Positions 3,977-62,283 of a stretch of 64,000 nucleotides of DNA are shown here, piece by piece. The stretch comes from a bacterium (GTDB taxonomy: Bacteria > Patescibacteriota > Minisyncoccia > UBA6257 > WO2-44-18): positions 20,404 through 84,403 of the forward strand of contig JAUSKF010000004.1 in the NCBI GenBank assembly GCA_030646995.1, in the 5' to 3' direction. Position numbers and translations under genes: made by a program. The notes below the pieces were generated by a model. It ran no database searches, was not told the DNA's origin, and worked only from the letters and a program-made list of their open reading frames with translations. Every line of letters starts with the position of its first letter. Positions within the stretch are counted from its first letter, which is position 1.

Positions 3977-4024
3977 GAAGTTTGCAGTTGTTAGCGGTTA
4001 GTTGTAAGTTTAGACATTGCCAAT

Positions 4025-4762
4025 ATGAAAAAGGACACATCTTGGGGCGTGGAAACTGTCATCGGCCACTATCAAAAAACTTTGATTTTGCCGAACCTGC
4101 TCCGACTGATGAACATCAAGAAAGATGAAGATATTTTGGATATCGGGTCCGGTCCGGGTTTTTTTGCTAATGAATTCGCGAAAAGAGGAGCGGAGGTAAC
4201 AGGCGTAGAGCTTTCTCAAGCTTTGATAGCGGAGGCGAAAAAGAAATATCCCGGCTTGAAGTCCTGCGTTGGTTCGGCCGAGGATATGCCTTTTTTGCAA
4301 AAATCGGAATTCGATAAGGTGGCGGCCGTACTGGCTCTTCAAAATATGGATAACCCTCACAAAATACTGGCGGAATGCGCCCGTATTCTTAAAACTAACG
4401 GCAAGCTATATATAGTAATAACCCATCCGGCCTTCCGAGTTTTGAAAAATAGCGAATGGGGCTGGGACGACACGAAAAAAATCCAATATCGCCGCATTGA
4501 TAGCTATTTATCCGAGTCAAAAGAAAAAATCGCCATGCACCCCTCAATAGGAATGGGCAAAGACCCGAAAGATTATACCATCTCATTCCATAGGCCGCTA
4601 CAAACGTATTTCAAATTACTAAAAAATTCCGGTTTTGTGGTGAGCGCACTTGAGGAATGGGAGTCCAACAAAAAAAGCGAGATGGGGCCTAGGGCCAAGG
4701 CGGAAGATGTGGCGCGAAAAGAAATTCCTTTGTTTTTGTTTATTGAAGCGTCTAAACTGTAG
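4025..4762 (+). CDS. Class I SAM-dependent methyltransferase
   Basis: Motif I DILDIGSGPGFF, Methyltransf_11-like. Confidence 0.8.
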   Translation: MKKDTSWGVETVIGHYQKTLILPNLLRLMNIKKDEDILDIGSGPGFFANEFAKRGAEVTGVELSQALIAEAKKKYPGLKSCVGSAEDMPFLQKSEFDKVAAVLALQNMDNPHKILAECARILKTNGKLYIVITHPAFRVLKNSEWGWDDTKKIQYRRIDSYLSESKEKIAMHPSIGMGKDPKDYTISFHRPLQTYFKLLKNSGFVVSALEEWESNKKSEMGPRAKAEDVARKEIPLFLFIEASKL

Positions 4763-5484: not shown

Positions 5485-6393
5485 ATGAAAAGACTAGTTT
5501 TCGCCCTGACATCTATAATCGCCCTAATAACCGCCTCCGGCGCAATTTTTGTGGGTTACAAGACTTATCAGCAGTTAACCTACCAACTGGAGGCCACACA
5601 AACTCAACTGGCCCTCTTAGAACGCTCCGTCGGCAATATACAAAACAAAACCACCGCCTCTCTCTCGAATCTTCAGGATAAAAACAAAACCCTATCCAAA
5701 GAATTGGAAAAGTCTCAAGGGGAATTGGAAGGCCTGTCTCTACCGCAGGATTTATTGCAGAACCTAATGGCACGTATCGTTTATGTTCAATGTAGGGATT
5801 CAGATAGCGCAGGGGATCGGGCGGGATCCGGAACCATCGGCTTGGTAAAAAGCACGGAAAGTGGCTTAGCGATTACGACCAACCTACACGTCACCGGATA
5901 TCCGACCTCTTTCTGTACCGCCCGACTACCAACTAGCCCAACTTATGAAAAACTTGGAGCAACGCGGCCGGCATTCGTGGGCAAATATGACAGCAATTAT
6001 CCGGATGTTGATGTGGCGCTAGTGCACGCGCAAAATGTGACGGAAAAGTTCGGGGTCTTCCCGATTCCCTTCTGCGCTCCAGCAGATATCAAAACCGGCA
6101 ACCCGATTACTTTATTCGGATACCCAAGCTTCGGCGGGAAAACCCTAACAATCACTGATGGAATTATCAGCGGAGTGCTACAAACTAAATGGGGGCCAAG
6201 ATATAAAACTTCTGCCAAAATTGATTTCGGCAACTCCGGCGGATTGGCGGTAGATAATAAACATCGCTGCGTAATCGGTATACCAACTTGGACTAAATTC
6301 GGCGGAGAGCTTGGGCAAAACCTAAGCACCGGAGAATCTCTGGGTCAAATCCAATCTTGGGAAATGATTAAAAAATCCGGAGAAATTTTCTAA
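5485..6393 (+). CDS. Membrane-anchored trypsin-like serine protease (S1 family) with N-terminal coiled coil
   Basis: N-terminal TM helix, coiled-coil stretch, DFGNSGG active-site serine motif; ORF 5437..6393 trimmed to MKRLVFALTS. Confidence 0.6.
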   Translation: MKRLVFALTSIIALITASGAIFVGYKTYQQLTYQLEATQTQLALLERSVGNIQNKTTASLSNLQDKNKTLSKELEKSQGELEGLSLPQDLLQNLMARIVYVQCRDSDSAGDRAGSGTIGLVKSTESGLAITTNLHVTGYPTSFCTARLPTSPTYEKLGATRPAFVGKYDSNYPDVDVALVHAQNVTEKFGVFPIPFCAPADIKTGNPITLFGYPSFGGKTLTITDGIISGVLQTKWGPRYKTSAKIDFGNSGGLAVDNKHRCVIGIPTWTKFGGELGQNLSTGESLGQIQSWEMIKKSGEIF

Positions 6394-6990: not shown

Positions 6991-7152
6991 ATGCATCACT
7001 ACATTTGCCTCGGCGGCTGCGAAGGGGTAGCGGAAAAAGAAAGTAAGTGCGGGGATCCTAAATGCCCGGATTATCAAAAAGATCTGAAGCATTGTGATTG
7101 TACTGACGGAAAGCACGAAGGAGAGTTCGAAAAGAAAGACAAGCAGGCATAA
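6991..7152 (+). CDS. Small Cys/Lys/Glu-rich putative metal-binding protein (53 aa)
   Basis: MHHYICLGGCEGVAEKESKCGDPKCPDYQKDLKHCDCTDGKHEGEFEKKDKQA, 8 Cys in CxxxC/CxxxxC/CxC spacing; not on ORF track (<60 aa); weak RBS. Confidence 0.3.
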   Translation: MHHYICLGGCEGVAEKESKCGDPKCPDYQKDLKHCDCTDGKHEGEFEKKDKQA

Positions 7153-7232
7153 TGTAATCCTACGCTATGCTCAGGATTGCTACTGCTTACCAAATTTTTT
7201 GCTTCTTTGAATTGAAAATTTGGAGCAGTAGG
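7153..7232 (+). repeat. ~90-bp double-hairpin element, copy 1 (inverted copy at 55262-55340)
   Basis: AATCCTACGCTATGCTCAGGATT hairpin + long hairpin CTACTGCTTACCAAATTTT..AAAATTTGGAGCAGTAG; ~95% identity to reverse complement of copy 2. Confidence 0.7.
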
Positions 7233-7262
7233 TAAAAAAATCCCCGTAGCAATGCGGGGATT

Positions 7263-13496: not shown

Positions 13497-13620
13497 TGCT
13501 TCTCGGACACAGAATAGCCCCACTCCAACGGTGGGGCTTTCTTCTCTCTCGGCGGTTAATCGTTCGTAAAATAATAACGAACGAACCAAGCTTAACCGCC
13601 TCCGAGATGTTCCTTAAAGC
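13497..13620 (+). repeat. Structured ~125-bp repeat element, copy A (family shared with 34014-34140 and 48568-48704)
   Basis: Shares CTCTCGGCGG-hairpin(GTTCGTTCG..CGAACGAAC)-CCAAGC..AACCGCCTCCGAGATGTTCCT core with copies B and C; 5' hairpin differs by compensatory changes. Confidence 0.7.
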
Positions 13621-13685
13621 AACACGACCAAGCCCCAAGACACCAAGAGAACAAAAAGTAGCCTCACTCATGTTGGGAGGCGTAG

Positions 13686-15168: not shown

Positions 15169-15229
15169 AAATAAGTCATTGCTTTCAGTATAACTAAGAT
15201 ATGGTAAAATAAACAGTAATGACTGAACG

Positions 15230-15472
15230 CCCTTTTTCCCAATTGATAAGAGAAATTTTTACTCAAGCCCGAGGCTTGTTTATGCCGTCATATAAACATA
15301 TGACCAATAAACTTAACAAAGGGATTGATAAAAATTTCCTTACCCTTCCGGGAGGCGCGACTATAGCCGATTTCTTTGTCGCTCTTCTTCAGCGTAGAGT
15401 CTACGCTTTCATCGTCGCTTCGCGAAATCTAGGCTATAGTCGTAGCCTTCAATTGGAAAAGGAGGGTATTTA
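15230..15472 (+). repeat. Duplicated ~245-nt structured element, copy 1 (candidate ncRNA/leader), upstream of LOG-family gene
   Basis: ~93% identical 3' 140-bp block and identical 5' 30 bp with copy at 23734-23976; terminal closing helix CCCTTTTTCCCAATTGA/TCAATTGGAAAAGGAGGG; internal long stem CGACTATAGCCGATTTC/GAAATCTAGGCTATAGTCG. Confidence 0.55.
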
Positions 15473-15484
15473 GTCATTACCAAA

Positions 15485-16231
15485 ATGAAAAAAAATAAAA
15501 AACAAGATAAGCCCGTTCGGCAAGCTCAGAGCGAGAAAGATAAATTATTGGTTCCGGCGAAAGAATTGCCGATCCATCTCCACCCGAAAGATTGGCGTCA
15601 TTCTTTCCACTGGCGCATCTTCCGCATTATGGCGGAATTTGTGGACGGCTTTCAATTTTTAGCTGACCTAAAGAATACGGTTACTTTTTTCGGCTCTGCC
15701 CGCCTCAATGAAGGAACCCGCTGGTATGAAGTGGCTCGAGAGCTCAGCAAAATGCTCGCTAAGGCCAAATTTGGCGTAATTACAGGAGGCGGACCGGGTA
15801 TTATGGAAGCCGGTAACCGCGGCGCTTTTGAGGGTAAGGGCGACTCTATCGGAATCAACATCCAACTGCCTTTTGAGCAACGCATCAACGAATATGTAAC
15901 TAAAAGTCATGGTTTCTATTATTTCTTCACCAGAAAAATAATGCTCTCTTTCGCTTCGCAGGCTTATGTTTATTTTCCCGGTGGATTCGGAACTTTAGAT
16001 GAGCTTTTTGAAATCTTAACTTTAGTTCAAACAAAAAAGATTTATGACAAAATTCCGATAATTTTGGTAGGAAAAGAATTCTGGGGAGATATCGATAAAT
16101 GGATGCGCGAGAAACTCCTCTTGCAGCACAAGACAATCGATGCCGAAGATCTGGAGCTCTACACGATTGTAGATACCGCGAAAGAGGCTTTCGAGATAAT
16201 TAAGAAATCTAAACCCCGCGAAGAATTCTAA
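15485..16231 (+). CDS. LOG family protein (TIGR00730, cytokinin riboside 5'-monophosphate phosphoribohydrolase-like)
   Basis: GGGPGIMEA and PGGFGTLDEL LOG motifs. Confidence 0.8.
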   Translation: MKKNKKQDKPVRQAQSEKDKLLVPAKELPIHLHPKDWRHSFHWRIFRIMAEFVDGFQFLADLKNTVTFFGSARLNEGTRWYEVARELSKMLAKAKFGVITGGGPGIMEAGNRGAFEGKGDSIGINIQLPFEQRINEYVTKSHGFYYFFTRKIMLSFASQAYVYFPGGFGTLDELFEILTLVQTKKIYDKIPIILVGKEFWGDIDKWMREKLLLQHKTIDAEDLELYTIVDTAKEAFEIIKKSKPREEF

Positions 16232-20207: not shown

Positions 20208-20798
20208 TCATTCGGTTGGGAGACCAGCTGAAGTCTCGGGTGCCGCTGGGGGTGGACCAACCTCGGCGGGATTTCTTAATTTTGATATCAGGCTCTGGAA
20301 TTTTTCATAATCAGGTAAATCTTCAACTCTGGCCACGCCCAAAAACTTCAAAAGCTCGAAGTTAGGCTTATACAAATAAACATTCCCCCTCTTCGGGTCA
20401 GGATAACGCTCCACAAGCCCTCGGATAGAAAGATTCCGCAAGCTGAAGCTGGAATTGACGCCTCGGATATAATCCAGCTCTGCGCGAGTCATCGGGCCGG
20501 CATAAGCGACGATGGAAAGCGTCTCTAGGGCGGCCGGTGTCAGATTTTCCCGCAATTCTTCTTTCATCACTGTCTCCAGCAAAGAAGAGAAGTCTGGCTT
20601 GGTAGTTAGTTGAACTTTTTCTTTATCGTAAACCAAAAAAAGTCCGCGATTCCCGGCCTTCAACTCTTCCGCTAATTTCTTAAGCGCCGCCTCTACATCT
20701 TCTTCAGAAGCCTTTAAAGTTTGTGCAATCTTTTTTAAACCAATTGCATCTCCGTAGATAAAAAGTAGCGCCTCAATTTTAGCTATTATTTCAGCCAT
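20208..20798 (-). CDS. scpB: Segregation and condensation protein B
   Basis: Winged-helix ScpB pattern (LEALLFIYGD...TLSIVAYAGPMTRAELDYIRGV); start trimmed to MAEIIAKIE inside ORF 20208..20846; Pro/Ala-rich C-terminal tail. Confidence 0.8.
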   Translation of the reverse strand: MAEIIAKIEALLFIYGDAIGLKKIAQTLKASEEDVEAALKKLAEELKAGNRGLFLVYDKEKVQLTTKPDFSSLLETVMKEELRENLTPAALETLSIVAYAGPMTRAELDYIRGVNSSFSLRNLSIRGLVERYPDPKRGNVYLYKPNFELLKFLGVARVEDLPDYEKFQSLISKLRNPAEVGPPPAAPETSAGLPTE

Positions 20799-22916: not shown

Positions 22917-23666
22917 ATGGCCAGAGAAGAGAAGGCTAGAACGAAAGGTACGGGATTCGTTAAGCTGGTGAAGAAAGGCAAAGATGGTGAGTGGATCGAG
23001 TTGCTTCTCGTGCACAATCTTTCCAAGCCAATGCCCGATGGCAAACCCAAGAATGTTGGCTGGGGAACACCGGGCGGTGGAGTTCGCGAAGATGAAAATG
23101 AGTATGAGGGAACGCTCCGTGAGTTGTTTGAAGAAAGCAATGCATTCCTCAATGTCGTCAGAGAGCTGATGAAAGAATTTATCGGACGCGAGCATGAGTT
23201 CGGCTATCTGGAGTATATGAACGAGGAAGATCAGAAAAAAGTTCTCACCATTCACCGGTTTGAAAAAATGCCGGAAAGGCTGGACAGTCTCACAAGGGAG
23301 ATCAAGCGACTGAAGATCGAAGATCCTCGGCTGAAGCCGGCTGTTGAGGAACGCAATGCGATCATCACGGAATATGCCTCTGCCGCAAAGAAATTCGGCC
23401 TGATAAAAATGATCGGCCAGCCGACGCCAGAAAATGGCCGCGACGGTGGGACTCATACGACCTGGCTGTTTGAGGTAGATGCCGCCGACATCCTCAACAT
23501 CGATGATCTAGGAACTCGCAACGAGATCGCCGGGAACGTAGACGGCTGGATGTGGGCGATGCGCGAATATCTCGAAGAGCGCGGAAGAAATTACAAGAAC
23601 TCTTTCGGCAAACCCGACTACATCTACGTAAAACACCTGCGCCGTCTTGGATTGATTCAAGACTAA
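22917..23666 (+). CDS. Nudix-box containing protein (N-terminal Nudix-like domain, C-terminal unknown)
   Basis: GGVREDENEYEGTLRELFEESNA fits GX5EX7REUXEEXGU except G->N; strong RBS AAGGAGG; intrinsic terminator at ~23668-23705; GC-rich relative to neighbours. Confidence 0.5.
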   Translation: MAREEKARTKGTGFVKLVKKGKDGEWIELLLVHNLSKPMPDGKPKNVGWGTPGGGVREDENEYEGTLRELFEESNAFLNVVRELMKEFIGREHEFGYLEYMNEEDQKKVLTIHRFEKMPERLDSLTREIKRLKIEDPRLKPAVEERNAIITEYASAAKKFGLIKMIGQPTPENGRDGGTHTTWLFEVDAADILNIDDLGTRNEIAGNVDGWMWAMREYLEERGRNYKNSFGKPDYIYVKHLRRLGLIQD

Positions 23667-23733
23667 CAATCACCCGCCCCCCACAGGGGCGGTTTTTTTA
23701 CTTTTGTTATAGAATAATAGCAATGTCCAAATA

Positions 23734-23976
23734 CCCTTTTTCCCAATTGATAAGAGAAATTTTTATTCAATCTCCAAGGCGCGAGAGTGTAGCTGTAGAC
23801 TCTACTGCAAGCTTGAGCAACGAAGGAGTTTATAAAAATTTCCTTACCCATCCGGGAGGCACGACTATAGCCGATTTCTTTGTCGCTCCTCTTCAGGGTA
23901 GAGTCTACGCTTTCATCGTCGCTTCGCGAAATCTAGGCTATAGTCGTAGCCTTCAATTGGTAAAGGAGGGTATTTA
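23734..23976 (+). repeat. Duplicated ~245-nt structured element, copy 2, immediately upstream of dnaX
   Basis: See copy 1 at 15230-15472; all 5 substitutions in the shared 140-bp block would be non-synonymous in the ORF-track frame. Confidence 0.55.
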
Positions 23977-23987
23977 GACATTGCCGT

Positions 23988-25094
23988 ATGGCACTCGCTA
24001 TATATAGAAAGTACCGCCCGAAAAGTTTTGACGAGCTTTTGGGTCAAAAAGAAATAATCGAGGTACTCCGCAACGCGGCGCGGCAAAATAAAATCGCCCA
24101 CGCCTATCTTTTCTATGGCCCAAAGGGCACCGGCAAAACCACCGTCGCCCGCCTCGTTGCCAAACTCGCCAACTGCGAGACTCGCAAAGAAGACAAAGCT
24201 TTCGGCCAGAAAGGCGAACCCTGCAACAAATGCGCTCACTGTTCGGAGATAGATTCCGGCCGGGCGCTAGACGTAATTGAAATTGACGCCGCCTCCAACC
24301 GCGGCATAGACGACGTGCGCGAACTGCGCGAAGGCATCCGCCTCTCCCCTTCTTCTTACGACTACAAGGTGGTCATTCTAGACGAGGTCCACATGTTGAG
24401 CCGCGACGCATTTAACGCGCTTTTGAAAACTCTGGAAGAGCCGCCGGCGCACGCGATAATTATTTTGGCGACCACCGAACTGGAAAAGGTCCCTCCGACC
24501 ATCATCTCCCGCACCCAGCGATTTCATTTCCGAAAACTGACCGTGGAAGAAATTATTGAGAAGTTGAACCGGATTGCCGCCACGGAAAAATTCAAAGTCG
24601 CCGAAGATGCCATAGAATTGATTGCCGCCTCAGCCGAAGGTAGCTTGCGCGACGCCGAATCTCTGCTGGACCAGATGGCCAGCATCAAAACGGAGATCTC
24701 CGTTGAAGATATAGAAAAAATTATCGGCAAAGTGGGCCTCGCTCGCACTGCCGACTTCTCCGAACTGGTACTCTCCACCGATCTAGCGGGCGCTTTGAAA
24801 TATATTTCCGACCTGAACTCGGGCGGCTATAACTTAGTGGACTTCAACAAGGAACTGATAAATTACTGGCGCCGGTTGTTGAGTCTGAAATTTGACCCAA
24901 AGCTGGATGAGTTATATAAAAACGAACTGACGAAAAAAGAATTGGAAAAAATGAAAGCGCAAAGCGTGAAAGTCGTCGCCGATAAACACATTAATTTCAT
25001 AAAATCCCTCATCCGCGCCTACAGCGAAATGCGCTACTCCCCTTTTGCAATCGTCCCGCTGGAAATCGCGATAATTGAGAATTTGCAGAAATAG
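23988..25094 (+). CDS. dnaX: DNA polymerase III subunit gamma/tau (short form)
   Basis: AAA+ clamp-loader motifs (GPKGTGKTT, DEVHML, SRTQRF), zinc module CxxC...CxxC. Confidence 0.85.
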   Translation: MALAIYRKYRPKSFDELLGQKEIIEVLRNAARQNKIAHAYLFYGPKGTGKTTVARLVAKLANCETRKEDKAFGQKGEPCNKCAHCSEIDSGRALDVIEIDAASNRGIDDVRELREGIRLSPSSYDYKVVILDEVHMLSRDAFNALLKTLEEPPAHAIIILATTELEKVPPTIISRTQRFHFRKLTVEEIIEKLNRIAATEKFKVAEDAIELIAASAEGSLRDAESLLDQMASIKTEISVEDIEKIIGKVGLARTADFSELVLSTDLAGALKYISDLNSGGYNLVDFNKELINYWRRLLSLKFDPKLDELYKNELTKKELEKMKAQSVKVVADKHINFIKSLIRAYSEMRYSPFAIVPLEIAIIENLQK

Positions 25095-32480: not shown

Positions 32481-32483
32481 AAG

Positions 32484-32530
32484 AGTAATCGCTAATAATG
32501 CTAATTAAAGATTTAATATTGCGAATGGGC
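32484..32530 (+). repeat. 47-bp TGCGAAT-triplet motif, copy 1 (copies also at 47541-47587 and 62233-62283)
   Basis: AGTAATCGCTAATAATGCTAATTAAAGATTTAATATTGCGAAT; three spaced A(T/A)NGC(G/T)AAT half-sites. Confidence 0.6.
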
Positions 32531-32588
32531 TTAAATACTCATTATTTGCATTATTTGCCAAAATTCGTATTATTAGCGAAAACTAACT

Positions 32589-33971: not shown

Positions 33972-35105
33972 TTATCGGAGCGGTTTTTGGTTGCAGAACA
34001 CCCTACATCTTTCGGCCAGACAGCTTCTCGGAAACAGAATAACTTTTCTCCTGCGGAAAAGTTTTCTTCGCTCTCGGCGGTTGTTCGTTCGATTATATAA
34101 ACGAACGAACCAAGCCCAACCGCCTCCGAGATGTTCCTCAAACCAATCTGACCGAAAGATGGGTACTTCCGTCGACGGAAGTAATAAATTTAGCCTCGCT
34201 TTTATTTTATTCGCGTTCCCATGCCCCAACATCCCCAAATATGACTGCCGGGATTGCTCATTTGGATTCTCTTTCAATCTCCGGAACATTTTCCACTTTG
34301 TGACGAAGCGAATAACCCTATGATCCGGGAAATGCACCCAGCCGAGAAAATCCACTCCCGAAACAAGGGTCTTCAGAAATAACTTGTCTTTGTGAATGAA
34401 TAATTTGAGATTCTCCTCAAGGAAATCCTGAATTTTCGGGATTATTTCCACAAGTCGTTCCTTGTCCGGAGACAAAAACACAAAGTCATCGGCGTATCTT
34501 ACGTAATGTCGGGCTTTGAGTTTATGCTTCACGAACTGGTCAAATTGATTCATATAAACATTAGCGAATAACTGGGAAGTGAGATTGCCGAGGGGCAGAC
34601 CAAAACCCGGCTTGGTGGAGAAACTACTTATGACATTCTCTAACAGCCAAATTATTTTCTGGTCGGGAATATATGCCTTCAGAATTTTGAGAAGAATCTG
34701 ATGATTAATGCTGTCAAAAAACTTTTTGATATCACACTTTAATACCCAGCAGGTTTTGGTGTGATTTTTGCTAACTTTATATGCTATCGCTCGGAAACGA
34801 TTAAGCGCTCGATGGGTTCCCTTTTTGATCCGGCAGGAAAACGAATCGGCAAAGAAAGTTTTATCAAAAAATGGATAAAGCAATCGGTGAATGGCGTGAT
34901 GAACGAGACGATCGCGAACTTCCGCCTTGTGAATGATGCGTGGTTTGGGGTCGGCGATTCGGAATTGATAATAGCCGCCGTGACGGTATCTTTGACTTGC
35001 CAACTCCCCGTGAAGCGATAGAATGTTATCCATAAGATTGAAACCGAATTCCTGCACATCCTTTTTACCTCGCTTCCCCTTCAAGAATTCCTGCCAAGCA
35101 ACCAA
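33972..35105 (-). CDS. Diversity-generating retroelement reverse transcriptase
   Basis: RT motifs incl. YADDFVF (motif C), GNLTSQLFANVY (DGR-type motif 4 with SQ), VDFLGW; N-terminal region colinear with Bordetella-phage-type bRT; last ~60 codons read through repeat element B and are probably not genuine. Confidence 0.85.
   Translation of the reverse strand: MVAWQEFLKGKRGKKDVQEFGFNLMDNILSLHGELASQRYRHGGYYQFRIADPKPRIIHKAEVRDRLVHHAIHRLLYPFFDKTFFADSFSCRIKKGTHRALNRFRAIAYKVSKNHTKTCWVLKCDIKKFFDSINHQILLKILKAYIPDQKIIWLLENVISSFSTKPGFGLPLGNLTSQLFANVYMNQFDQFVKHKLKARHYVRYADDFVFLSPDKERLVEIIPKIQDFLEENLKLFIHKDKLFLKTLVSGVDFLGWVHFPDHRVIRFVTKWKMFRRLKENPNEQSRQSYLGMLGHGNANKIKARLNLLLPSTEVPIFRSDWFEEHLGGGWAWFVRLYNRTNNRRERRKLFRRRKVILFPRSCLAERCRVFCNQKPLR
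34014..34140 (+). repeat. Structured ~125-bp repeat element, copy B; overlaps 3' end of RT ORF on opposite strand
   Basis: ~90% identical to copy C (48568-48704 reverse complement) and core-identical to copy A. Confidence 0.7.
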
Positions 35106-35166
35106 AAGATTTTCAATAGAAATTATATCCTCAAAACTATGACGGAATTGAATTCTACCTATAACG

Positions 35167-35176
35167 CCCCCCCCCC
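35167..35176. repeat. Homopolymeric C10 tract in divergent RT/avd promoter region
   Basis: ACGCCCCCCCCCCAGCC between RT start (35105) and avd start (35191). Confidence 0.8.
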
Positions 35177-35190
35177 AGCCGATTTTTCCG

Positions 35191-35532
35191 TTGTTGCATA
35201 AAATAAAAGATGCTTACGCGCTTTGGTATTCCTACTACCAGATTCTACCAAAAACCCACCGCTACTCGCTCGGCCAGAAAATTGACTCTCTTTTTGTAGA
35301 AATTATAGAAACCGTGGCTGCTGCCGGCTTTATCGCCAAGGAAAAGAAGCTGGCATATTTAAGTTTGGCGATTATGAAAGTAGATACGCTAAAAGTTTTG
35401 ATGATGGTTCTCTGGGAGAATAAATCGCTGAACGATAAAAAATATATTCAAATATCTTTTAAAATAAGCGAACTAGGAAAAATGCTTGGCGGCTGGCTGG
35501 GAAAGATTCAGAAACAAAACTCTCCCCGCTAA
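35191..35532 (+). CDS. avd: Avd-like accessory variability determinant (four-helix-bundle protein, TIGR02436-like)
   Basis: 113 aa, basic helical protein with pattern resembling 23S-IVS/four-helix-bundle family; divergent to RT and adjacent to TR. Confidence 0.65.
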   Translation: MLHKIKDAYALWYSYYQILPKTHRYSLGQKIDSLFVEIIETVAAAGFIAKEKKLAYLSLAIMKVDTLKVLMMVLWENKSLNDKKYIQISFKISELGKMLGGWLGKIQKQNSPR

Positions 35533-35544
35533 AAAGCGGGGAGA
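35521..35544. other. GC-rich hairpin flanking TR (DGR hairpin/cruciform candidate)
   Basis: CTCCCCGCTAAAAAGCGGGGAGAG; avd stop codon lies in loop. Confidence 0.6.
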
Positions 35545-35555
35545 GAAATAGATAG

Positions 35556-35690
35556 ATTTGCGACGACCGAACACCCAGACGTTGTCGGGATTCCAGAAGT
35601 TGTCAGCGTTGCCGTTGTTCGCGTTGAGCCAATGCTCATCGCTATTATGCTCCACGTTGAACACGTTCGGGTTGCCGTTCGAGTCAGTTA
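35556..35690 (-). repeat. DGR template repeat (TR), Asn/AAC-rich
   Basis: ~135 bp; coding-strand reads ...NGNPNVFNVEHNSDEHWLNANNGNADNFWNPDNVWVFGRRK; 24 of 25 mismatches vs VR lie at TR adenines. Confidence 0.85.
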
Positions 35691-35935
35691 TATATAAGAG
35701 GCTGCCTATGCCACCGCCCATTGAATACTCTCTGGGTTGTATCGAATTCCGTACCTAAAGTACGATAGCCTCTTATACCAAGTATCTCTATTTTTTTAGA
35801 GTTCTGCGCGCGCCACTCTATCTCCAACCTTGATCAGAAACACACTCGACACGCGGATACTGGATTCGGCAGCAAGGAACCTTAGTCCCCCGCGTATTCG
35901 CCTAATACCAAAATTATATTAACATACGCTAAAAA

Positions 35936-35970
35936 CAAAAACCCCCGCGCTCGAAAGCGCGGGGACAAAG
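35936..35970 (-). terminator. Intrinsic terminator after DGR target gene; doubles as VR-proximal hairpin
   Basis: CCCCCGCGCTCGAAAGCGCGGGG with T-run on minus strand. Confidence 0.65.
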
Positions 35971-36008
35971 AGTCAAAGGGCCAGGTCAAAAGTTCCAAGG
36001 ACTAAGAG

Positions 36009-36764
36009 CTACTTGCGACGACCGAACACCCAGACGTCGTCGGGATCCCAGAAGCGGCCAGCGTCGCCGTCGCTCGCGTGGAGCCAATGCCCACCGCCAT
36101 CCGGCTCCACGCAGAACACGAACGGGTAGCCGCTCGAGTCAGAAATCGGCTCCATTCCGACCAGAATCCATTCCCCGTAAGGCTGGTCCTGGTATTGGAG
36201 GCGGAGCTGGGGGCCGACTTCGGCAGGGCAGCGATCCAAGCCAAGCTCTTTGGCTTCGGCGTAGATCTGCTCGCGAGTGCCGCCACTGGGAAGTCCCAGT
36301 TGGGCGACCGTCATCTTGACCAGATCGATCTCTATCTCCTTGGGGTTGACCGAGATCTTTTTCAGAATGTCGTTGCCCCAGTCAGAGACCCGGTTTTTCT
36401 TGCCGATGATGGCCTTTCGGAGAGCCTCCGGAGACGGATGCGTTCCCAGCTTGAGGGTCTTCCAGACAGGAAGAGCGGAAGAGCATCGAATCGGCTTGAT
36501 CTCGCCAACCCTGGCAATCGCCTGGTCGATTCGGTCGCAGAACTGCTGAAGTCCGGTGATTTTTTCACCGAGCTCAGAACGAAGCACCTCCAAATCATTC
36601 TTGTGTGCCTGCTTCGCTTCCGAAAGCTGGTTTTCCAACTCTCCGATTTTCTTCACCTCTTCCTTGGCCTCCTCGCAAACTTTCGTCAAATCCCCACTCA
36701 AGTCGACGTCTTCTTCAGACTTCTTTTTTCCGCTCACCGGAGCTCTCCTGAATTGGGTTATCAA
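36009..36764 (-). CDS. DGR variable (target) protein: N-terminal coiled coil, C-terminal ligand-binding domain ending in VR
   Basis: C-terminus ...GYPFVFCVEPDGGGHWLHASDGDAGRFWDPDDVWVFGRRK encoded by VR; perfect TTGACA-17-TATATT promoter upstream. Confidence 0.8.
   Translation of the reverse strand: MITQFRRAPVSGKKKSEEDVDLSGDLTKVCEEAKEEVKKIGELENQLSEAKQAHKNDLEVLRSELGEKITGLQQFCDRIDQAIARVGEIKPIRCSSALPVWKTLKLGTHPSPEALRKAIIGKKNRVSDWGNDILKKISVNPKEIEIDLVKMTVAQLGLPSGGTREQIYAEAKELGLDRCPAEVGPQLRLQYQDQPYGEWILVGMEPISDSSGYPFVFCVEPDGGGHWLHASDGDAGRFWDPDDVWVFGRRK
36012..36147 (-). repeat. DGR variable repeat (VR)
   Basis: Matches TR over ~135 bp with adenine-specific substitutions (AAC->AGC/TAC/TTC/GAC/CAC etc.). 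Confidence 0.85.
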
Positions 36765-47536: not shown

Positions 47537-47540
47537 ATGG

Positions 47541-47587
47541 AGTAATCGCGAATAATGCTAATTAAAGATTTAATAATGCGAATAAGC
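47541..47587 (+). repeat. 47-bp TGCGAAT-triplet motif, copy 2 (abuts trmD start codon)
   Basis: AGTAATCGCGAATAATGCTAATTAAAGATTTAATAATGCGAAT. Confidence 0.6.
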
Positions 47588-47616
47588 TCATGGTACTGCG
47601 GATCCGGGAAAACTAA

Positions 47617-48382: not shown

Positions 48383-48425
48383 TGATAGATATTCTATATC
48401 AGTCTGAGGACAAAGTCAAAGGGCT

Positions 48426-48547
48426 ACGGGAATAGCCCCTCGGAAACGGCATAATTTGCTTCCGGCGAGCAAATTTGCCTCTCCCTCGCTTCGCCACTAT
48501 TAAGACCAAGCTGGCGAAGCTCCGGCATGTTCCTCGAAACTATTCCC
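48426..48547 (+). repeat. ~125-bp hairpin-rich element L with 8-bp terminal inverted repeats (GGGAATAG/CTATTCCC)
   Basis: ~85% identical to reverse complement of 49429-49556; internal stems show compensatory changes between copies. Confidence 0.7.
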
Positions 48548-48567
48548 TTCGCTCTTTTTAAGAGTAA

Positions 48568-48704
48568 GGCTAGACAGCTTTAAGGAACATCTCGGAGGCG
48601 GTTGTGCTTGGCTCGTTCGTTATGTCCGAACGAACAGCCGCCGAGAGAGAAGGAAACTTTTCCGCAGGAGAAAAGTTATTCTGCTTCCAAGAAGCTGTCT
48701 GGCC
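48568..48704 (-). repeat. Structured ~125-bp repeat element, copy C, with 13-bp terminal inverted repeats (GGCCAGACAGCTT/AAGCTGTCTAGCC)
   Basis: Reverse complement ~90% identical to copy B at 34014-34140. Confidence 0.7.
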
Positions 48705-48768
48705 GAGCCATTGACTTGAAAATACTGTAGGCGTACTTTTAAGGCAGCTACTTTTCAAGGAAAAGCCG

Positions 48769-49377
48769 ATGAAAAGCTTCATTGCTCTACTCGTTTCCGC
48801 GACTGCGATTTTTGCCTATCCCGACGAAGAAGTCAAAGAGGAAGCAAAGGCTCCTAACATCGAAGGCTGGACGGTTTCCGATGCGGATCCGCCCAAGCAC
48901 GGCTTCCAGGCCGTGCGTATGAGCAAGACCGGCACCGCCCTGAAGCCCGACGATGCACGCCAGCCCGTGATGGAAAGTGTTTTTTATGAAGACCCGGATA
49001 ACCCCGGCGAATACGGCGGCATCTACCGCTCCAAGAACGATAGGGGTGAATGGGTGACCTTCGCTAAGGTCTGGGGCATCAAAAAAGTTGAAGGTAAATA
49101 TATGCAGGATGAAGACAGGGACGGCAACGGCGTACCCGACGGCAACGGCGAGATGAACTATGCAGTTCTCGACGAAAACGGGAAATGGGTTCCCGGCTTG
49201 CCCGGAAAAACCATCATGGCCTGGAAGACCGTCTGGAACGACTCGGATACGAAAGACTATCCAGTCGGTTTCAGCTACTGCCTGTGTTATGAAGATGAAG
49301 GCGACGCCAGCGGTCTCTTTATGAAGACCGGAAATGTCTGGATTGAAAAGCCGGAAGCCGAAAAAGACGAAGAGTAA
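48769..49377 (+). CDS. GC-rich secreted acidic protein, unknown function
   Basis: Signal peptide MKSFIALLVSATAIFAY; Asp/Glu-rich; terminator at ~49381-49410; flanked by inverted copies of element L/R. Confidence 0.55.
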   Translation: MKSFIALLVSATAIFAYPDEEVKEEAKAPNIEGWTVSDADPPKHGFQAVRMSKTGTALKPDDARQPVMESVFYEDPDNPGEYGGIYRSKNDRGEWVTFAKVWGIKKVEGKYMQDEDRDGNGVPDGNGEMNYAVLDENGKWVPGLPGKTIMAWKTVWNDSDTKDYPVGFSYCLCYEDEGDASGLFMKTGNVWIEKPEAEKDEE

Positions 49378-49428
49378 AACCAAAACCCCTCTCATGAGGG
49401 GCTTTTTGTTGTTTTCAAATTAACCAAA

Positions 49429-49556
49429 GCGAAGGAAATAGCTTCGAGGAACATGCCGGAGTTTCGCCAGCTGGGTCTTTCAGAAGTGGCGAAACGAGGG
49501 AGAGGCAAATTGAGCCGCTGGAGCTCAATTATGCCGTTTCCGAGGAACTATTCCCG
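49429..49556 (-). repeat. Element R, inverted copy of element L
   Basis: Reverse complement aligns with 48426-48547 end to end. Confidence 0.7.
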
Positions 49557-49561
49557 GAGCC

Positions 49562-51760
49562 CTATTCTAGTTTTAATGAAAGCACCCGCGAAGTCCCATC
49601 ATCTCCCATAGTCACACCATACATCACGCTGGCGGCTTCCATTGTGGCGCGGTTATGAGTAACCAATAAGAACTGGGTTTTTTCGGAAAAAGTTTTAATT
49701 AAGTCGGAGAAGCGGCGAGCGTTGCGTTCATCAAGCGGCGCATCTATTTCATCAAGCACCAGAAATGGCGGGGGGCTGACCGAGATAAGAGCAAAAAGCG
49801 CGGCGATAGAAACCAAACTCTTTTCTCCGCCCGAGAGCATTTCCAAACTACTGATTTTCTTACGGGGAATGCTGACGTGCACCTCCAAGCCACCATGGTC
49901 TACTTTGTGACCCGCATCTTCGTCCTCACTGGGAACCTCATCGCCCGGAGTCGCATTTTCCATATTAACCTCATCAGAAACTTCCGGCTTCGGCTCATCC
50001 TTTACCAATTTCAAGCTAGCCTTCCCGCCTCCGAACATCAGTTTAAAATACCTATCAAATTCATCGTTAATTGACGACATCGCTCTATCAAATTCGGTAT
50101 GAATTTTCTCATCCAAATCATTAATCAAAACTCCCAAGTCATCGGAAGCTTTATCCAAATCCGCCATTTGGGTAGACAAGAAATTATGTCGCGCCTCAGT
50201 ATCTTGGGCTTCTTTTACCAAAGCCGGATCCAAATCCCCTATTCCGGCCAACTCGGCCCGCAACTTAAACATCTTCTTCTCTAATTCCGCTAATCCGCCT
50301 CCGCCAACCAGGGCGGATGACGGACTCCCACCCACCAATTCCTTCGCAGAGAAATCACTCAACTTACGACCGGCCTGCGCCGCCAAATTATGCAATTCTT
50401 GCCGCCGAATAGTTATCCTTTCCCTATCAAAAAGCAGTCTATTTTTCTCATTTTCCAACTTCTGAATCTCATCTTTCTTTGCCTCCACTAATTCAAAAGC
50501 CTTCTTAAACACCGCGTTAAACCCGCGCAAATCTTCTGCTAACTTATCTTCCATGCCGGTCAACTGACCAAGCTCGGCATCCACTGCCGCCAAATCGGAA
50601 AATAATTTTTCTTTAGACTTTTCCAATTCTTTTACCTTTCCTTCGCGATTATCTGAACCAACGGAAAGTACACGCTCAATCTTATCTGAAAGCTCGCGCA
50701 AAATTGATTTCAAGCCCACTAGGTCGTCCTCTACTAGGGCTTCACCAATCTTTTCCCTCGTTTCTTCAAGCAGTTTCACCGCTTCGGCAGCCTTCATCTC
50801 CGACTTTGGCTGATTCACCAAAAATTCCATCTGCGCCTCCAAACGGCCGATGTCTTTTTGAAAAATAGACTTCTTAAAGAGAAAATCTGCCTGCTTCTTT
50901 TTAAAATCCTGAAAATTCTGGTCCCCTTTCGGGCCTGATTTATCGACTTTCGCCAACTCGCCCTGCACGTCTTTTAGTTCTCGTCGTTTGTCGTTGGTCT
51001 CTTTGTCTAAGCCGTTAAGTTGCGGCTCCAAATCTTTTAAATCCTTTTCTATATCAAATAAACGACCGCCGAAATAAATGGCCTCCAGGTCGTGGAGTTC
51101 TTTTTCCACATCTGCCTGCTTCTCCCACTTGGCGGCCTGACGACGGAGTAAACGTAAATGCGGGGTTAACTCATCAATCATCGCTTTCACTTTTTCCAAA
51201 TTAAATTTAGTAGAAACTAGTTTCCGTTCCGCCTCATGCTTTTTTAATTGGAACTGGCGCAATCCCAAAACCTCCTCAATCATCGCGCGGCGTTCCTTCG
51301 GAGTAGCGCGCACAAAAATATCGCTATTGCCCTGATTTACTATAGTAAGGCCACGGGTTCCAAGACGGGCTTTGGCAAAAAAATCTATGATATCTTTCAG
51401 GCGAACCGAGGCTTCATTTAAAAAATATTCCGAATCACCTCCGCGGCTGACTTTGCGGGTGATGGAAACTTCATCATAATCCACGGGAAAGAAATGATCG
51501 CTGTTTTCAAAAATCATTGTTGCCTGCGCCATACCCATGCGCGGCTTCTGTGGCGTGCCCGCGAAAATAAGATCTTCAGATTTAGTGCCGCGGATATTTT
51601 TCGCGTCACGCTCTCCTAGGAGCCAACGAATCGCATCAATCACGTTAGATTTACCCGAACCATTCGGGCCGACAATGGCCGTAATTCCTGCCGGAAAATC
51701 CAAAACCGTCTTTTGGGCAAAAGACTTAAAACCGACTAGTTCTAGCCGCTTCAACTGCAT
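49562..51760 (-). CDS. smc: Chromosome segregation protein SMC (short-coil form)
   Basis: N-terminal Walker A GPNGSGKSN, long coiled coils, C-terminal LSGGEKSLVSIA signature and Walker B LVLDEIDA; scpA/scpB present elsewhere in window. Confidence 0.75.
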   Translation of the reverse strand: MQLKRLELVGFKSFAQKTVLDFPAGITAIVGPNGSGKSNVIDAIRWLLGERDAKNIRGTKSEDLIFAGTPQKPRMGMAQATMIFENSDHFFPVDYDEVSITRKVSRGGDSEYFLNEASVRLKDIIDFFAKARLGTRGLTIVNQGNSDIFVRATPKERRAMIEEVLGLRQFQLKKHEAERKLVSTKFNLEKVKAMIDELTPHLRLLRRQAAKWEKQADVEKELHDLEAIYFGGRLFDIEKDLKDLEPQLNGLDKETNDKRRELKDVQGELAKVDKSGPKGDQNFQDFKKKQADFLFKKSIFQKDIGRLEAQMEFLVNQPKSEMKAAEAVKLLEETREKIGEALVEDDLVGLKSILRELSDKIERVLSVGSDNREGKVKELEKSKEKLFSDLAAVDAELGQLTGMEDKLAEDLRGFNAVFKKAFELVEAKKDEIQKLENEKNRLLFDRERITIRRQELHNLAAQAGRKLSDFSAKELVGGSPSSALVGGGGLAELEKKMFKLRAELAGIGDLDPALVKEAQDTEARHNFLSTQMADLDKASDDLGVLINDLDEKIHTEFDRAMSSINDEFDRYFKLMFGGGKASLKLVKDEPKPEVSDEVNMENATPGDEVPSEDEDAGHKVDHGGLEVHVSIPRKKISSLEMLSGGEKSLVSIAALFALISVSPPPFLVLDEIDAPLDERNARRFSDLIKTFSEKTQFLLVTHNRATMEAASVMYGVTMGDDGTSRVLSLKLE

Positions 51761-51811
51761 TGCTATTATTTTAACTAAAAAAGCCGCGTATTGCTACGCG
51801 GCTTCATATTT

Positions 51812-55147: not shown

Positions 55148-55261
55148 ATGAATAGTAGCTAGTGGCTAGTAGATAGTAGCTAGAACAGCCAATAGCAATA
55201 CTTTTAAGATAGCGGGTTTCAAGAAAATTGTCAAAGAGTCAGAGGATACTTGATTTTTTTA

Positions 55262-55340
55262 CCTACTGCTCCAAATTTTCAATTCAAAGAAGCAGAAAAT
55301 TTGGTTAGCAGTAGCAATCCTGAGCGTAGCGTAGGATTAC
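55262..55340 (-). repeat. ~90-bp double-hairpin element, copy 2
   Basis: See copy 1; lies in rpmF upstream/divergent region. Confidence 0.7.
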
Positions 55341-55414
55341 ATTTACCGTGTTGCCAAAATTAAAAGCCTATGCGACATTAATTATAGCGTTTTGACATAG
55401 AGAAAGGTCAGAAC

Positions 55415-60472: not shown

Positions 60473-62248
60473 TTGTATTTTATGAGTAAAATTGTATCTA
60501 TGGCTTCCGAAACTAATCTAGAAAATATTCGCCACTCGCTCGCCCATTTGTTAGCGGCGGCGGTTTTAAAAAAATATCCGAAAGTAAAACTCGGTATTGG
60601 CCCCGTCATTGAGAACGGGTTTTATTATGATTTTGACCTGCCCGAAGCGCTGACTCCCGAAGACCTGCAAGATTTCACAAAAGAAATGCGGAAAATGATT
60701 AACGCCAAACTCCCCTTCTCGGGCGAGGAAGTTACAGCCGCGGCCGCCACCAAGCGGATGAAGGGCCAGAAATATAAGCTGGAATTAATCAAAGATTTTT
60801 CCAAAGAAGATCAGAAGCTTTCTATATATAAAACCGGCGATGTCTTTGAAGACCTTTGCCGCGGAGGCCATGTGGCCGACACTTCGGAAATAAATGCCGA
60901 AGGTTTTAAGTTGGATTCCATCGCCGGAGCTTATTGGAAAGGCAGCGAGAAAAATGCCCAGCTTCAACGTATCTATGGATTGGCCTTCGCCAACAAAAAC
61001 GAACTGGAAGCCTTCTTAAAAATGCGCGAAGAGGCCCAGAAGCGGGACCACCGCAAACTCGGCAAAGAGCTAGAACTTTTTGAGATCATTGATGAAGTCG
61101 GCCCAGGATTGCCGTTGTTCCATCCGAAAGGCGCGATCTTGCGCCGCGTCGTAGAAAACTACATCACCGAACTTCAGGAAAGCCGAGGCTACCAACCGAT
61201 CTGGATCCCCCACATTACCAAAGGCGAGCTCTACAAGATCTCCGGCCATTTGGATAAATACGACGCGATGTACCCGCCAATGAAGCTCAAAGACGAGGCG
61301 GATTACTACATCAAACCGATGAACTGCCCGCACTTTATGATGCTTTATAAAGCTCAACAGCATTCATATAAAGAGCTACCAGTGCGCTGGACCTGCACCA
61401 CCACCAACTATCGCCACGAAAAATCCGGCGAGCTTTCCGGCTTAACTCGCGTGCGCTCACTCACCCAAGACGATTGCCACGTGTTTGCCCGACCGGATCA
61501 GATAGAACCAGAAATTAATCTGATGCTGGATATGATAGAAGAGGTTTATAAAAAATTCGGCTTCAACGATTTCTGGGTCCGCATCTCCACGCGCGATCCG
61601 AATCCGCCAGCTGGCGGATCGAAAGATAAATATATCGGCGATGAGAAGGTCTGGCAGGAATCCGAAGAAGCTCTGGCTCGGCTCATCCAAAAGCGCGGCT
61701 GGAAGCATGAGATCGGCGTGGGCGAGGCCGCCTTCTATGGTCCAAAGTTGGATTTCATTTTCAAAGACGTGATTGGCCGCGATTGGCAGCTTTCCACAAT
61801 TCAATTAGATATGAACCTGCCGAAAAGATTTGATTTGGAATACACCGACACCGATGGCACCAAAAAAGCTCCAGTGGTCATTCATCGCGCAATCTTAGGC
61901 TCTACCGAGCGCTTCTTGGGAATACTCATTGAGCACTATGGCGGCGCCTTCCCTGCTTGGCTCGCTCCTGTGCAGGTAAAAATCGTGCCGATTTCAGAAA
62001 AGCATCTGGCCTATGCGGAAAAAATCAAAAAGGAATTGGTTGGCTATCGCGTAGAAATTGCTTCCGAAAACGACACGCTTGGGAAAAAAATCCGCAACGC
62101 TGAAAAGGAAAAAGTGCCGTTCTTGGCGGTGGTTGGAGATAAAGAAATGGAAAGCGGCATGGTTAGCCTGCGCGAACACGGCGGCAAAGACCACGGCTCG
62201 ATAAGTGTAGAAAAACTGAAAGAAATGCTCCGGAGTAATCGCGAATAA
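60473..62248 (+). CDS. thrS: Threonine--tRNA ligase (lacking N-terminal TGS domain)
   Basis: Class II aaRS motifs, second additional domain (HxxxH…CGGxH), anticodon-binding domain; contains in-frame CCGCCAGCTGGCGG (NPPAGG). Confidence 0.9.
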   Translation: MYFMSKIVSMASETNLENIRHSLAHLLAAAVLKKYPKVKLGIGPVIENGFYYDFDLPEALTPEDLQDFTKEMRKMINAKLPFSGEEVTAAAATKRMKGQKYKLELIKDFSKEDQKLSIYKTGDVFEDLCRGGHVADTSEINAEGFKLDSIAGAYWKGSEKNAQLQRIYGLAFANKNELEAFLKMREEAQKRDHRKLGKELELFEIIDEVGPGLPLFHPKGAILRRVVENYITELQESRGYQPIWIPHITKGELYKISGHLDKYDAMYPPMKLKDEADYYIKPMNCPHFMMLYKAQQHSYKELPVRWTCTTTNYRHEKSGELSGLTRVRSLTQDDCHVFARPDQIEPEINLMLDMIEEVYKKFGFNDFWVRISTRDPNPPAGGSKDKYIGDEKVWQESEEALARLIQKRGWKHEIGVGEAAFYGPKLDFIFKDVIGRDWQLSTIQLDMNLPKRFDLEYTDTDGTKKAPVVIHRAILGSTERFLGILIEHYGGAFPAWLAPVQVKIVPISEKHLAYAEKIKKELVGYRVEIASENDTLGKKIRNAEKEKVPFLAVVGDKEMESGMVSLREHGGKDHGSISVEKLKEMLRSNRE

Positions 62249-62283
62249 TGCGAATTAAAGAGGTAATATTGCGAATAATAAAC
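62233..62283 (+). repeat. 47-bp TGCGAAT-triplet motif, copy 3 (overlaps thrS last four codons)
   Basis: AGTAATCGCGAATAATGCGAATTAAAGAGGTAATATTGCGAATAATAAAC. Confidence 0.6.

Follow-up and report, generated by a model that had tools for sequence, protein, structure and literature searches.

A repeated, structured ~265-nt RNA element with a conserved open reading frame upstream of unrelated genes in Patescibacteria

Directly upstream of a LOG-family gene and of dnaX, a short sequence occurs twice in the 64,000-nt stretch of DNA analyzed here (positions 20,404 to 84,403 of contig JAUSKF010000004.1, assembly GCA_030646995.1, from a member of the Patescibacteriota; hereafter, the window), and this raises the question of what kind of element it is. 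An automatic list of open reading frames (ORFs) places a small protein in each copy, whereas an earlier note on this DNA took the repeat for a structured RNA and not a protein gene, and suggested a cis-acting leader or a small-RNA module. In this work, we compared the two copies, collected their relatives and analyzed their fold, their reading frame and their genomic position. Altogether, the alignment of 15 copies argues that the element is a genuine conserved structured RNA, with a new covariation-supported fold of ~265 nt that is absent from Rfam, and that this four-way-junction RNA carries an unusual signature, namely selection on translatability without selection on the product.

Pairwise alignment showed that the two copies, A and B, are of equal length and offset by exactly 8504 nt. 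The duplicate had been described as having an identical 5' end, an unrelated middle and a near-identical 3' block, and so it proved: a 5' segment of 32 nt (15230-15261 = 23734-23765, CCCTTTTTCCCAATTGATAAGAGAAATTTTTA) is identical, the middle of ~70 nt is unrelated in sequence, and the 3' block of ~145 nt differs at five positions within the ORF and at one just past its TAG. As also stated before, all five differences within the ORF are non-synonymous (L/H, A/T, L/P, R/G and E/V). Regarding the ORF calls, the 84-aa one for copy A stands, whereas the 141-aa one for copy B (23552-23977, + strand) is an over-extension upstream across the intrinsic terminator 23674-23699, which belongs to the NUDIX gene upstream of this copy; starting at the ATG equivalent to that of copy A, the ORF of copy B also has 84 codons. 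No third copy was found in the window by searches with up to three mismatches and by a repeat scan, and a shuffled-sequence control for the copy searches gave 0 matches.

Relatives were searched with the 84-aa translation, and then with a profile, against 5.8 billion predicted proteins, in which 15 small ORFs matched, one of them a truncated copy. When a profile was run against 1.84 billion cluster representatives, 36 clusters scored E ≤ 0.001. Most of these are 83-86 aa long, so that ~30 clusters of 83-86 codons come on top of the homologues aligned here; two matches among the representatives, P0018 (4344 aa) and P0041 (1412 aa), were unrelated repeat proteins and were discarded as false positives. 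DNA was fetched for 12 of the protein-database relatives, and a DNA pattern scan that did not rely on the ORF, run on one genome per species, contributed copies L010 and L012. The working set consists of 15 distinct DNA copies (A, B and 13 further ones), of which L006 is broken by an insertion and 14 are complete. Two of the six pattern matches in the genome collection (Nodosilinea and Bacteroidota) and all three on metagenome contigs of the Joint Genome Institute were chance matches, the latter without the element; viral contigs gave no match in the pattern scans, and nhmmer, run on the window and on the 186 kb of fetched loci, brought up no extra copies. Copies occur in Saccharibacteria/candidate phyla radiation (CPR) genomes and in groundwater metagenomes. 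The pattern-scan hosts are metagenome-assembled genomes (MAGs) of uncultured Candidatus Saccharibacteria, one of which has three copies; a distant member is annotated as Candidatus Harrisonbacteria, and many other relatives come from 0.1-µm fractions of Hainich groundwater. Within one genome the 3' blocks are near-identical while the middles differ (A versus B; L001, L010 and L012), which indicates concerted evolution or mosaic recombination. Separately, a 21-nt palindrome of the form CCTGCCTGCCGGCAGGCAGG stands inserted at three different element sites in three organisms (L004 588-608, L006 ~455-475 and L023 ~5992-6012). L004 and L023 have it in frame, read as 'LPAGRQG', and it resembles a very small mobile hairpin of CPR genomes, distinct from the element.

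Both copies are predicted to fold stably. The minimum free energy is -93 kcal/mol for each, with z-scores of -7.4 (A) and -6.6 (B) relative to dinucleotide shuffles, and none of 200 shuffles was as stable as the real copies; A and B give the same architecture despite their differing middles. Four helices, P1 to P4 (Table 1), meet without unpaired junction nucleotides, the modeled fold being a perfect four-way junction. P1 closes the element over ~31 bp, from 3 nt before the ATG to the CATYRC past the TAG. The earlier note had recognized this closing helix, which is present in the minimum-free-energy folds, and had understated its extent; the ~17-bp internal stem that it described around the GCGTAGAGTCTACGC hairpin is present in the same folds. 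The copy-specific distal hairpin of P2 (~15260-15330) corresponds to the unrelated middle, and the apical sequence of P4 is common to the copies of one genome.

Comparison among the copies bears out the structured-RNA proposal. On the 15-sequence alignment (A3), RNAalifold returned 87 pairs, 47 of them with compensatory double changes. In a curated structure of 98 pairs, in which P4 was completed from the single-sequence fold, 93.4% of the cells form a standard pair, compared with 37-46% when the 3' partners are slid by 1-3 columns and 83.8% after shuffling; 53 of the 98 pairs are changed on both sides, compared with 9-19 for slid and 24.6 ± 2.5 for shuffled partners, and none of 500 shuffles equalled the observed value on any pairing measure. 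Double changes affect 9 of the 29 pairs of P1 (helix 1, with 97.5% of cells paired), 24 of 34 in P2 (helices 2-6) and 20 of 33 in P4 (helices 8-11), while P3 has no covariation support because its stem never varies among the 15 copies. Thus, in P1, ATGACT/AGTCAT of copy A is matched elsewhere by ATGTCC/AGACAT, and by ACATCT/AGATGT in L012; in P2, GTCATAT/ATATGAC becomes GCTATAT/ATATAGC, GCCATAT/ATATGGC or CGGCATG/CATGCCG; and in P4, GCGTAG/CTACGC becomes GTGTG/CACAC. In copy L025 the entire P4 is of unrelated sequence and forms the same helices. Furthermore, there are more G·U pairs (55 cells, spread over 27 positions of which two are conserved) than A·C ones (21 cells, over 17 positions), which favors an RNA of the + strand rather than one of the - strand or a pure DNA hairpin. 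The Rfam scan that had been proposed found no matching family: two tRNAs were all that the whole window gave at gathering thresholds, and the element region, at E ≤ 10, gave a single chance match (TeloSII_ncR49, 20 bits versus a threshold of 55).

The frame that runs through this fold is open throughout. Over the 15 copies, stop codons number 0 in frame 0, 73 in frame +1 and 84 in frame +2, and in the variable middle alone 0, 18 and 40, respectively. Insertions of 21 and 33 nt (L004), 21 nt (L023) and 3 nt (L012) keep the frame, as does a 3-nt deletion in P3; a second type of middle region has a compensating +1/-1 pair 25 nt apart, and L025, with its replaced P4, regains the frame ahead of the conserved end. 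The UAG is, judging from the alignment, kept beyond what pairing needs: column 340 is always A, though column 12 is C in five copies and a C·A mismatch results, and a G in column 340 would pair with that C and turn UAG into UGG. In addition, P1 holds a motif resembling a Shine-Dalgarno (SD) sequence, AAGGAGGG, 5 nt ahead of the UAG. The GGAGG in it seems to be kept for its own sake, because its GG is never Watson-Crick paired, being engaged in a wobble (columns 22/330) beside a bulged neighbor in 14 of the 15 copies; it is probably a meaningful motif, since canonical SDs serve other genes of this organism (AAGGAGG, 5-7 nt from ATG, in the window).

In contrast to the frame, the peptide is not, as far as its divergence tells, under protein-type purifying selection. 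Entropy by codon position is 0.65, 0.57 and 0.60, with no third-position excess; the ratio of non-synonymous to synonymous divergence (dN/dS, Nei-Gojobori), which the earlier note had wanted computed, ranges from 0.45 to 1.76 over 17 pairs with a mean of ~0.9; and in each of the 105 pairs the nucleotides are more alike (mean identity 73.6%) than the amino acids (55.4%). AlphaFold2, given a 14-sequence alignment, returned a predicted local distance difference test score (pLDDT) of 50.1 and a predicted template modeling score of 0.22, and neither peptide matched Pfam or NCBIfam at any threshold. Within the peptide, good conservation is confined to MSKYPFSQLIRE and LQLxKEGI, which the two P1 strands encode. 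The earlier note would have taken homologous small proteins with synonymous-dominated divergence, or a domain match, as a refutation; homologous small ORFs do exist in other genomes, but they do not diverge mainly at synonymous sites, and no domain matched. Taken together, the statement that this is not a protein gene holds in that protein-type selection is absent from the comparison, and does not hold if it is taken to mean that the ORF is accidental, given the stop counts, the in-frame indels and the retained UAG. The ORF is very probably translated, and it is the act of translation, not the product, that would matter.

As to position, every one of the 15 copies points towards the next gene and lies directly 5' of it. 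As had been pointed out, they end close to the downstream start codons: TAG and ATG are 11 nt apart in copy A (ATG 15485) and 10 nt apart in copy B (ATG 23988), where the dnaX start is fixed by the N-terminus MALAIYRKYRP. Of the 14 complete copies, 13 have 8-11 nt between UAG and AUG, and L002 has 45 nt. The host ATG lies 1-5 nt past the base of P1 in 13 of the 14, and the tail between element and host gene, ACAUYRCY(N0-4)AUG, has no SD or GGAG. The genes that follow are unrelated (LOG, dnaX, holB-like, SMC-like, murG, rpe, NUDIX, pfkB, a GT2 glycosyltransferase, a VirD4/TraG-like ATPase and an AI-2E permease), and a functionally coherent set of the riboswitch type was not seen among the downstream genes of the copies. 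On the 5' side, a -10-like box was recognized by eye 6-11 nt before the ORF ATG in 13 of the 15 copies; a strict sigma-70 -35/-10 scan upstream of A and B gave no match. The promoter of copy A must lie in 15169-15218, because the upstream gene is divergent. In the operonic copies L004, L018 and L023, the ORF starts 0-6 nt after the stop codon of the preceding gene. No terminator was found between element and next gene for A and B, and no transposase was seen next to any copy at the fetched loci. The cis placement that the earlier note had suggested thus holds for every copy, while its other suggestion, a small-RNA module, fares worst of the explanations weighed below.

Two orthologous sites occur both filled and empty. 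The dnaX site is filled by copy B in the window and empty in the Saccharibacteria MAG of L001, whose DnaX is 79% identical and where the order is terminator, TAGAAT, TAGGGA and ATG GCC CTA GCG. Reciprocally, an SMC-like gene encoding 733 aa has the element in L016, while its orthologue in the window (84% identical in protein) reads terminator, TAAAAT, AATAGCA and ATG CAG TTG. Given these protein identities, the window probably comes from a relative of the organisms behind these two contigs. Both empty sites show the layout of leaderless genes, that is, a -10 box, 6-7 nt and the ATG, whereas at the filled sites the ATG of the element takes the leaderless position, 6-8 nt after a -10 box, and the host ATG becomes internal. 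Judged from these site pairs, the element is a presence/absence polymorphism: leaderless-type genes gain and lose it at a point between promoter and start codon. Further window genes start 6-8 nt after a TAnnnT box without an SD (e.g. at 2211, 8748, 10308, 12506, 25537, 37573 and 51760), and leaderless and SD-dependent initiation seem to coexist in this genome; the enrichment of this layout is modest, with 5-8 of 54 window ORFs. In addition, the tail of the element occurs alone, as TTTAGACATTGCCAAT-ATG before a methyltransferase gene at 4009..4027 (+) in the window and as TTTAGACATCGCTC-ATG before a DUF192 gene in L021 (6060-6076). Both share the form TTTAGACATYRCY-N-ATG. Each may be a relic of a copy since lost; alternatively, the tail may be functional by itself.

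We favor, with moderate confidence, the reading that the element is an inserted, or at least gained and lost, translated leader cassette coupled to its host gene by termination-reinitiation. A ribosome would start at the AUG nearest the 5' end, in operons by coupling to the preceding cistron and otherwise in leaderless mode, before P1 has formed; it would read the frame of 83-85 codons, melting the structure, terminate at the invariant UAG beside the SD-like motif acting as a tether, and re-initiate at the neighboring AUG of the host gene, which lacks its own SD. Conservation of AUG, frame, UAG and spacing beside a drifting peptide would then arise because the ribosome must pass through to the host gene, and the cassette could sit before essential genes because read-through and re-initiation keep the host expressed. 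The fold itself may serve mRNA control or stability, with P1 hiding both start regions, or the propagation of the element; for P2 to P4, P1-based stabilization or silencing of the mRNA, binding of a factor and propagation are candidate roles. Features expected of termination-reinitiation are present, namely a stop near the main AUG (in 13 of the 14 complete copies) and a main ORF that lacks an SD in an organism that uses SDs. There is precedent for this mode in Mycobacterium tuberculosis, where ppe2 is expressed by termination-reinitiation, for which an upstream ORF inside its structured riboswitch leader has to be translated (PMC11260477), and re-initiation has also been studied in Escherichia coli (PMC2268962).

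Several points weigh against this reading. Most homologues came through protein databases, which favors intact ORFs; the copies found from DNA only are A, B, L010 and L012, all four of which are open, and with ~1.9 stops per off-frame middle we estimate that four independent open middles would arise by chance with a probability of roughly 5 x 10^-4. The steps of expression (transcription start, translation and re-initiation), as well as any regulatory or mobility role, are inferred from sequence. Besides, the ORF AUG is buried without an SD in a 31-bp helix, being usable only before P1 forms or in leaderless mode, and the mRNA is not strictly leaderless, because three positions upstream of the AUG covary and so belong to the RNA. 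The GGAGG lies 17-20 nt from the host AUG, beyond the normal SD range. Copy L012 has lost the AUG: ACA stands in its place, the tail has changed to match, and initiation in this copy would require the in-frame GTG just upstream. Finally, the model leaves unexplained both the conservation of P2 to P4 and the solo tails at window position 4009 and in L021.

Could the element act in cis without being translated? It might be a processing or regulatory leader whose P1 is cut, for instance by RNase III, or opens in response to a ligand, protein or temperature, which we consider unlikely. P1 as a near-perfect duplex that ends just before the host AUG and holds the SD-like motif and both start regions is in line with it, and the junction with the invariant loop bases of P2 (G..C / AAC..AG) resembles a binding site; transcripts of Correia elements, each a miniature inverted-repeat transposable element (MITE), are cut by RNase III at their inverted repeats (PMC10969869). 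The empty sites are leaderless-type starts, and a host mRNA freed by such a cut, with its AUG 1-5 nt from the new 5' end, would suit a leaderless-friendly organism, an equally unlikely course of events. Such a leader leaves the open frame (0 versus 73 and 84 stops), the in-frame indels and the retained AUG and UAG unexplained; moreover, its downstream genes are functionally unrelated, unlike those of a ligand-specific riboswitch, and no Rfam family matches. Somewhat less likely still is a purely DNA-level explanation, a palindromic, MITE-like selfish repeat whose inverted repeats and hairpins would serve transposition or replication, with the RNA fold and the ORF as by-products. The two or three copies per genome in varied contexts, the orthologous sites that are filled or empty, P1 strands that resemble terminal inverted repeats of ~30 bp, the mosaic or concerted evolution that leaves near-identical 3' blocks beside differing middles, and the other palindromic repeat families of the same genome would all fit a MITE, and MITEs often lie upstream of genes, with promoters, and may hold ORFs (PMC10969869). 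Against it, no target-site duplication flanks the 15 copies (the 5' flank ends in ..A and the 3' flank starts with C..), and the orientation to the next gene in 15 of 15 copies and the fixed AUG distance are unlike random intergenic insertion. We know of no transposase for the element, and its copy number is low, with two in the 64-kb window and three in one MAG. The excess of G·U over A·C, including the two conserved wobbles, points to a + strand RNA, covariation reaches internal helices of unrelated sequence such as the whole P4 of L025, and selection on the frame would be left without explanation.

That the ORF is an ordinary gene for a small protein of ~84 aa, co-transcribed with the next gene and with incidental mRNA structure, we regard as improbable. 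The conservation of length (83-86 aa), start and stop in ~45 sequences, a start context resembling those of this genome's genuine leaderless genes and the conserved N- and C-terminal peptide motifs speak for it. However, these peptide ends coincide exactly with the P1 strands, the dN/dS of ~0.9 comes without a third-position excess, nucleotides are more conserved than amino acids in every pair, and the compensatory changes in stems hit two codons at once; in L025/P0015 unrelated residues make up the C-terminal half, yet the helix persists, and a pLDDT of 50 and the lack of a domain match add to this. A stand-alone, trans-acting small RNA of a multicopy family is very improbable and the least likely of all, even though its 5' end would be predicted near the base of P1 and the fold is compact and present in several copies per genome: there is no terminator between element and next gene, the element keeps a constant position with respect to the AUG downstream, and the distal P2 shows no preferential complementarity to its own genes, with mean duplex energies of -33.4 kcal/mol for these and -33.5 kcal/mol for others. 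Integron attC sites, group II introns, hairpin ribozymes, tRNA-like structures and IscB/TnpB guide RNAs were dropped as candidates, as no defining feature or neighboring gene was present.

Within the favored reading of a translated, re-initiation-coupled leader, it is tempting to speculate further. The element might be a 'harmless-insertion' element that colonizes the 5' ends of leaderless genes, with its own AUG placed at the leaderless position, with obligatory read-through and re-initiation preserving host expression, and with the junction recognized by a mobility or regulatory factor; we put this forward only tentatively. If true, it would be the translational counterpart of introns, inteins and in-frame Rickettsia palindromic elements (RPEs), in which splicing or fusion plays that part.

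Table 1. Coordinates of the element, its helices and adjoining features in the window
Feature	Position	Strand	Remarks
Copy A, whole element	15216..15480	+	From closing-helix base to closing-helix base
Copy B, whole element	23720..23984	+	Each feature at the copy A coordinate + 8504
Copy A ORF, 84 codons	15219..15473	+	ATG 15219, TAG 15471-15473; frame conserved, peptide not
Copy B ORF, 84 codons (84 aa)	23723..23977	+	ATG at position equivalent to that of copy A
P1, 5' strand	15216..15246	+	GTA ATG ACT GAA CGC CCTTTTTCC CAATTGA; holds ORF start codon
P1, 3' strand	15449..15480	+	TCAATTGGAAAAGGAGGGTATTTAGTCATTAC; holds SD-like motif (15459-15466) and stop TAG
P2	15247..15342	+	Conserved 12-bp base, internal loop with invariant bases, distal hairpin
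P3	15343..15352	+	Mini-hairpin CCC-NNNN-GGG; stem invariant, loop variable
P4	15353..15448	+	Long stem (GGCGCGACTATAGCCGATTTC / GAAATC..GGCTATAGTCGTAGCC) with apical hairpin GCGTAGAGTCTACGC
-10-like TAAAAT, copy A	15205..15210	+	8 nt before ORF ATG
-10-like TAGAAT, copy B	23710..23715	+	7 nt before ORF ATG; directly after terminator 23674-23699
LOG / Lysine_decarbox family gene	15485..16231	+	Downstream of copy A; no SD between element and ATG
dnaX	23988..25094	+	Downstream of copy B; no SD between element and ATG
Empty site, start of SMC-like gene	51758..51800	-	Orthologue in L016 has the element at this point

The window holds other repeats and a further locus of note. A diversity-generating retroelement-like locus occupies 33972-36764 on the - strand. 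Its reverse transcriptase spans 33972-35105 (Pfam RVT_1, 1.6e-26), the template repeat lies at ~35558-35687, and the variable repeat, at ~36013-36142, falls at the 3' end of the ORF 36009-36764; nearly all mismatches between the two repeats fall on adenines of the template repeat, which is rich in AAC codons. A second, unrelated family of palindromic repeats of ~130 nt has copies at 13498-13629 (+), 34012-34153 (+) and 48572-48706 (-), one of which overlaps the 3' end of the reverse-transcriptase ORF, and its inner hairpin shows a compensatory change (GCCCCAC/GTGGGGC versus ACTTTTC/GAAAAGT). Between inverted repeats at 48420-48561 and 49420-49563 (79 and 60 nt, with 84-88% complementarity) lies a 203-codon ORF. 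Both strands are open there (48769-49377 and 48787-49395), and Pfam gave no match for either reading. There are also a 92-nt inverted pair (7151-7242 and 55252-55343, 97% complementary, 48 kb apart) and a 49-nt direct repeat, GAGTAATCGCGAATAATGCTAATTAAAGATTTAATATTGCGAATGGGCT, in three copies (32483-32531, 47540-47588 and 62233-62281) that are 82-92% identical.

CPR bacteria (Patescibacteria) have tiny genomes, few regulators and scant experimentally characterized RNA biology, to which the new fold adds. An element in which the frame appears to be selected and the peptide does not separates 'being translated' from 'encoding a protein', and it calls for caution in the annotation of small proteins from metagenomes, as ~45 'hypothetical proteins' of the databases belong to it. 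The naturally filled and empty sites make coupling, or re-initiation after a leaderless ORF, directly testable. If the element is mobile, it would show how essential genes, dnaX and SMC among them, can take an insertion between promoter and start codon and not be killed by it.

The element combines features of translated leaders with those of MITE-like repeats, a combination that we did not find described, and a full-text literature search found no description of the element itself. In mRNAs of the hok/sok type, fold-back inhibition operates: the 5' end pairs over a long range with a 3' segment and silences the translation start regions. The long-range 5'/3' pairing, the putative dependence on translation of an overlapping or upstream frame, the multicopy nature and the covariation-supported fold are shared with these systems, whereas the element is fused to housekeeping genes and shows no evidence of an antisense RNA; the hallmark of type I toxins, a conserved small hydrophobic peptide, was not seen, the peptide being unconserved outside its P1-encoded ends. 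RPEs, in turn, are palindromic repeats that keep an open frame and do not destroy host expression, as here, but they lie in frame inside the host ORF and become part of the host protein, while the element has its own start and stop before the host ORF. The leader of M. tuberculosis ppe2, with its B12 riboswitch, is close in that an ORF lies in a structured leader and the downstream gene, without an efficient ribosome-binding site, starts just after the leader-ORF stop (PMC11260477). In that leader the ORF lies beside the aptamer, whereas in the element it spans the whole 265-nt fold and has its 5'-end start in a leaderless-type context; the element is also repeated before unrelated genes, implies no ligand class, and its translation is a conclusion from the conserved frame. 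With MITEs such as ERIC and the Correia elements of Neisseria (PMC10969869), the element has in common that it is short and multicopy, has inverted-repeat ends of ~30 bp, lies just upstream of genes, is presumably co-transcribed with them as a long hairpin and possible RNase III substrate, and is present or absent between related genomes. Unlike these MITEs, it has no target-site duplication and keeps a strict orientation and a fixed distance to the start codon, and with only two or three copies per genome it forms a four-way junction whose internal helices covary and whose frame is conserved.

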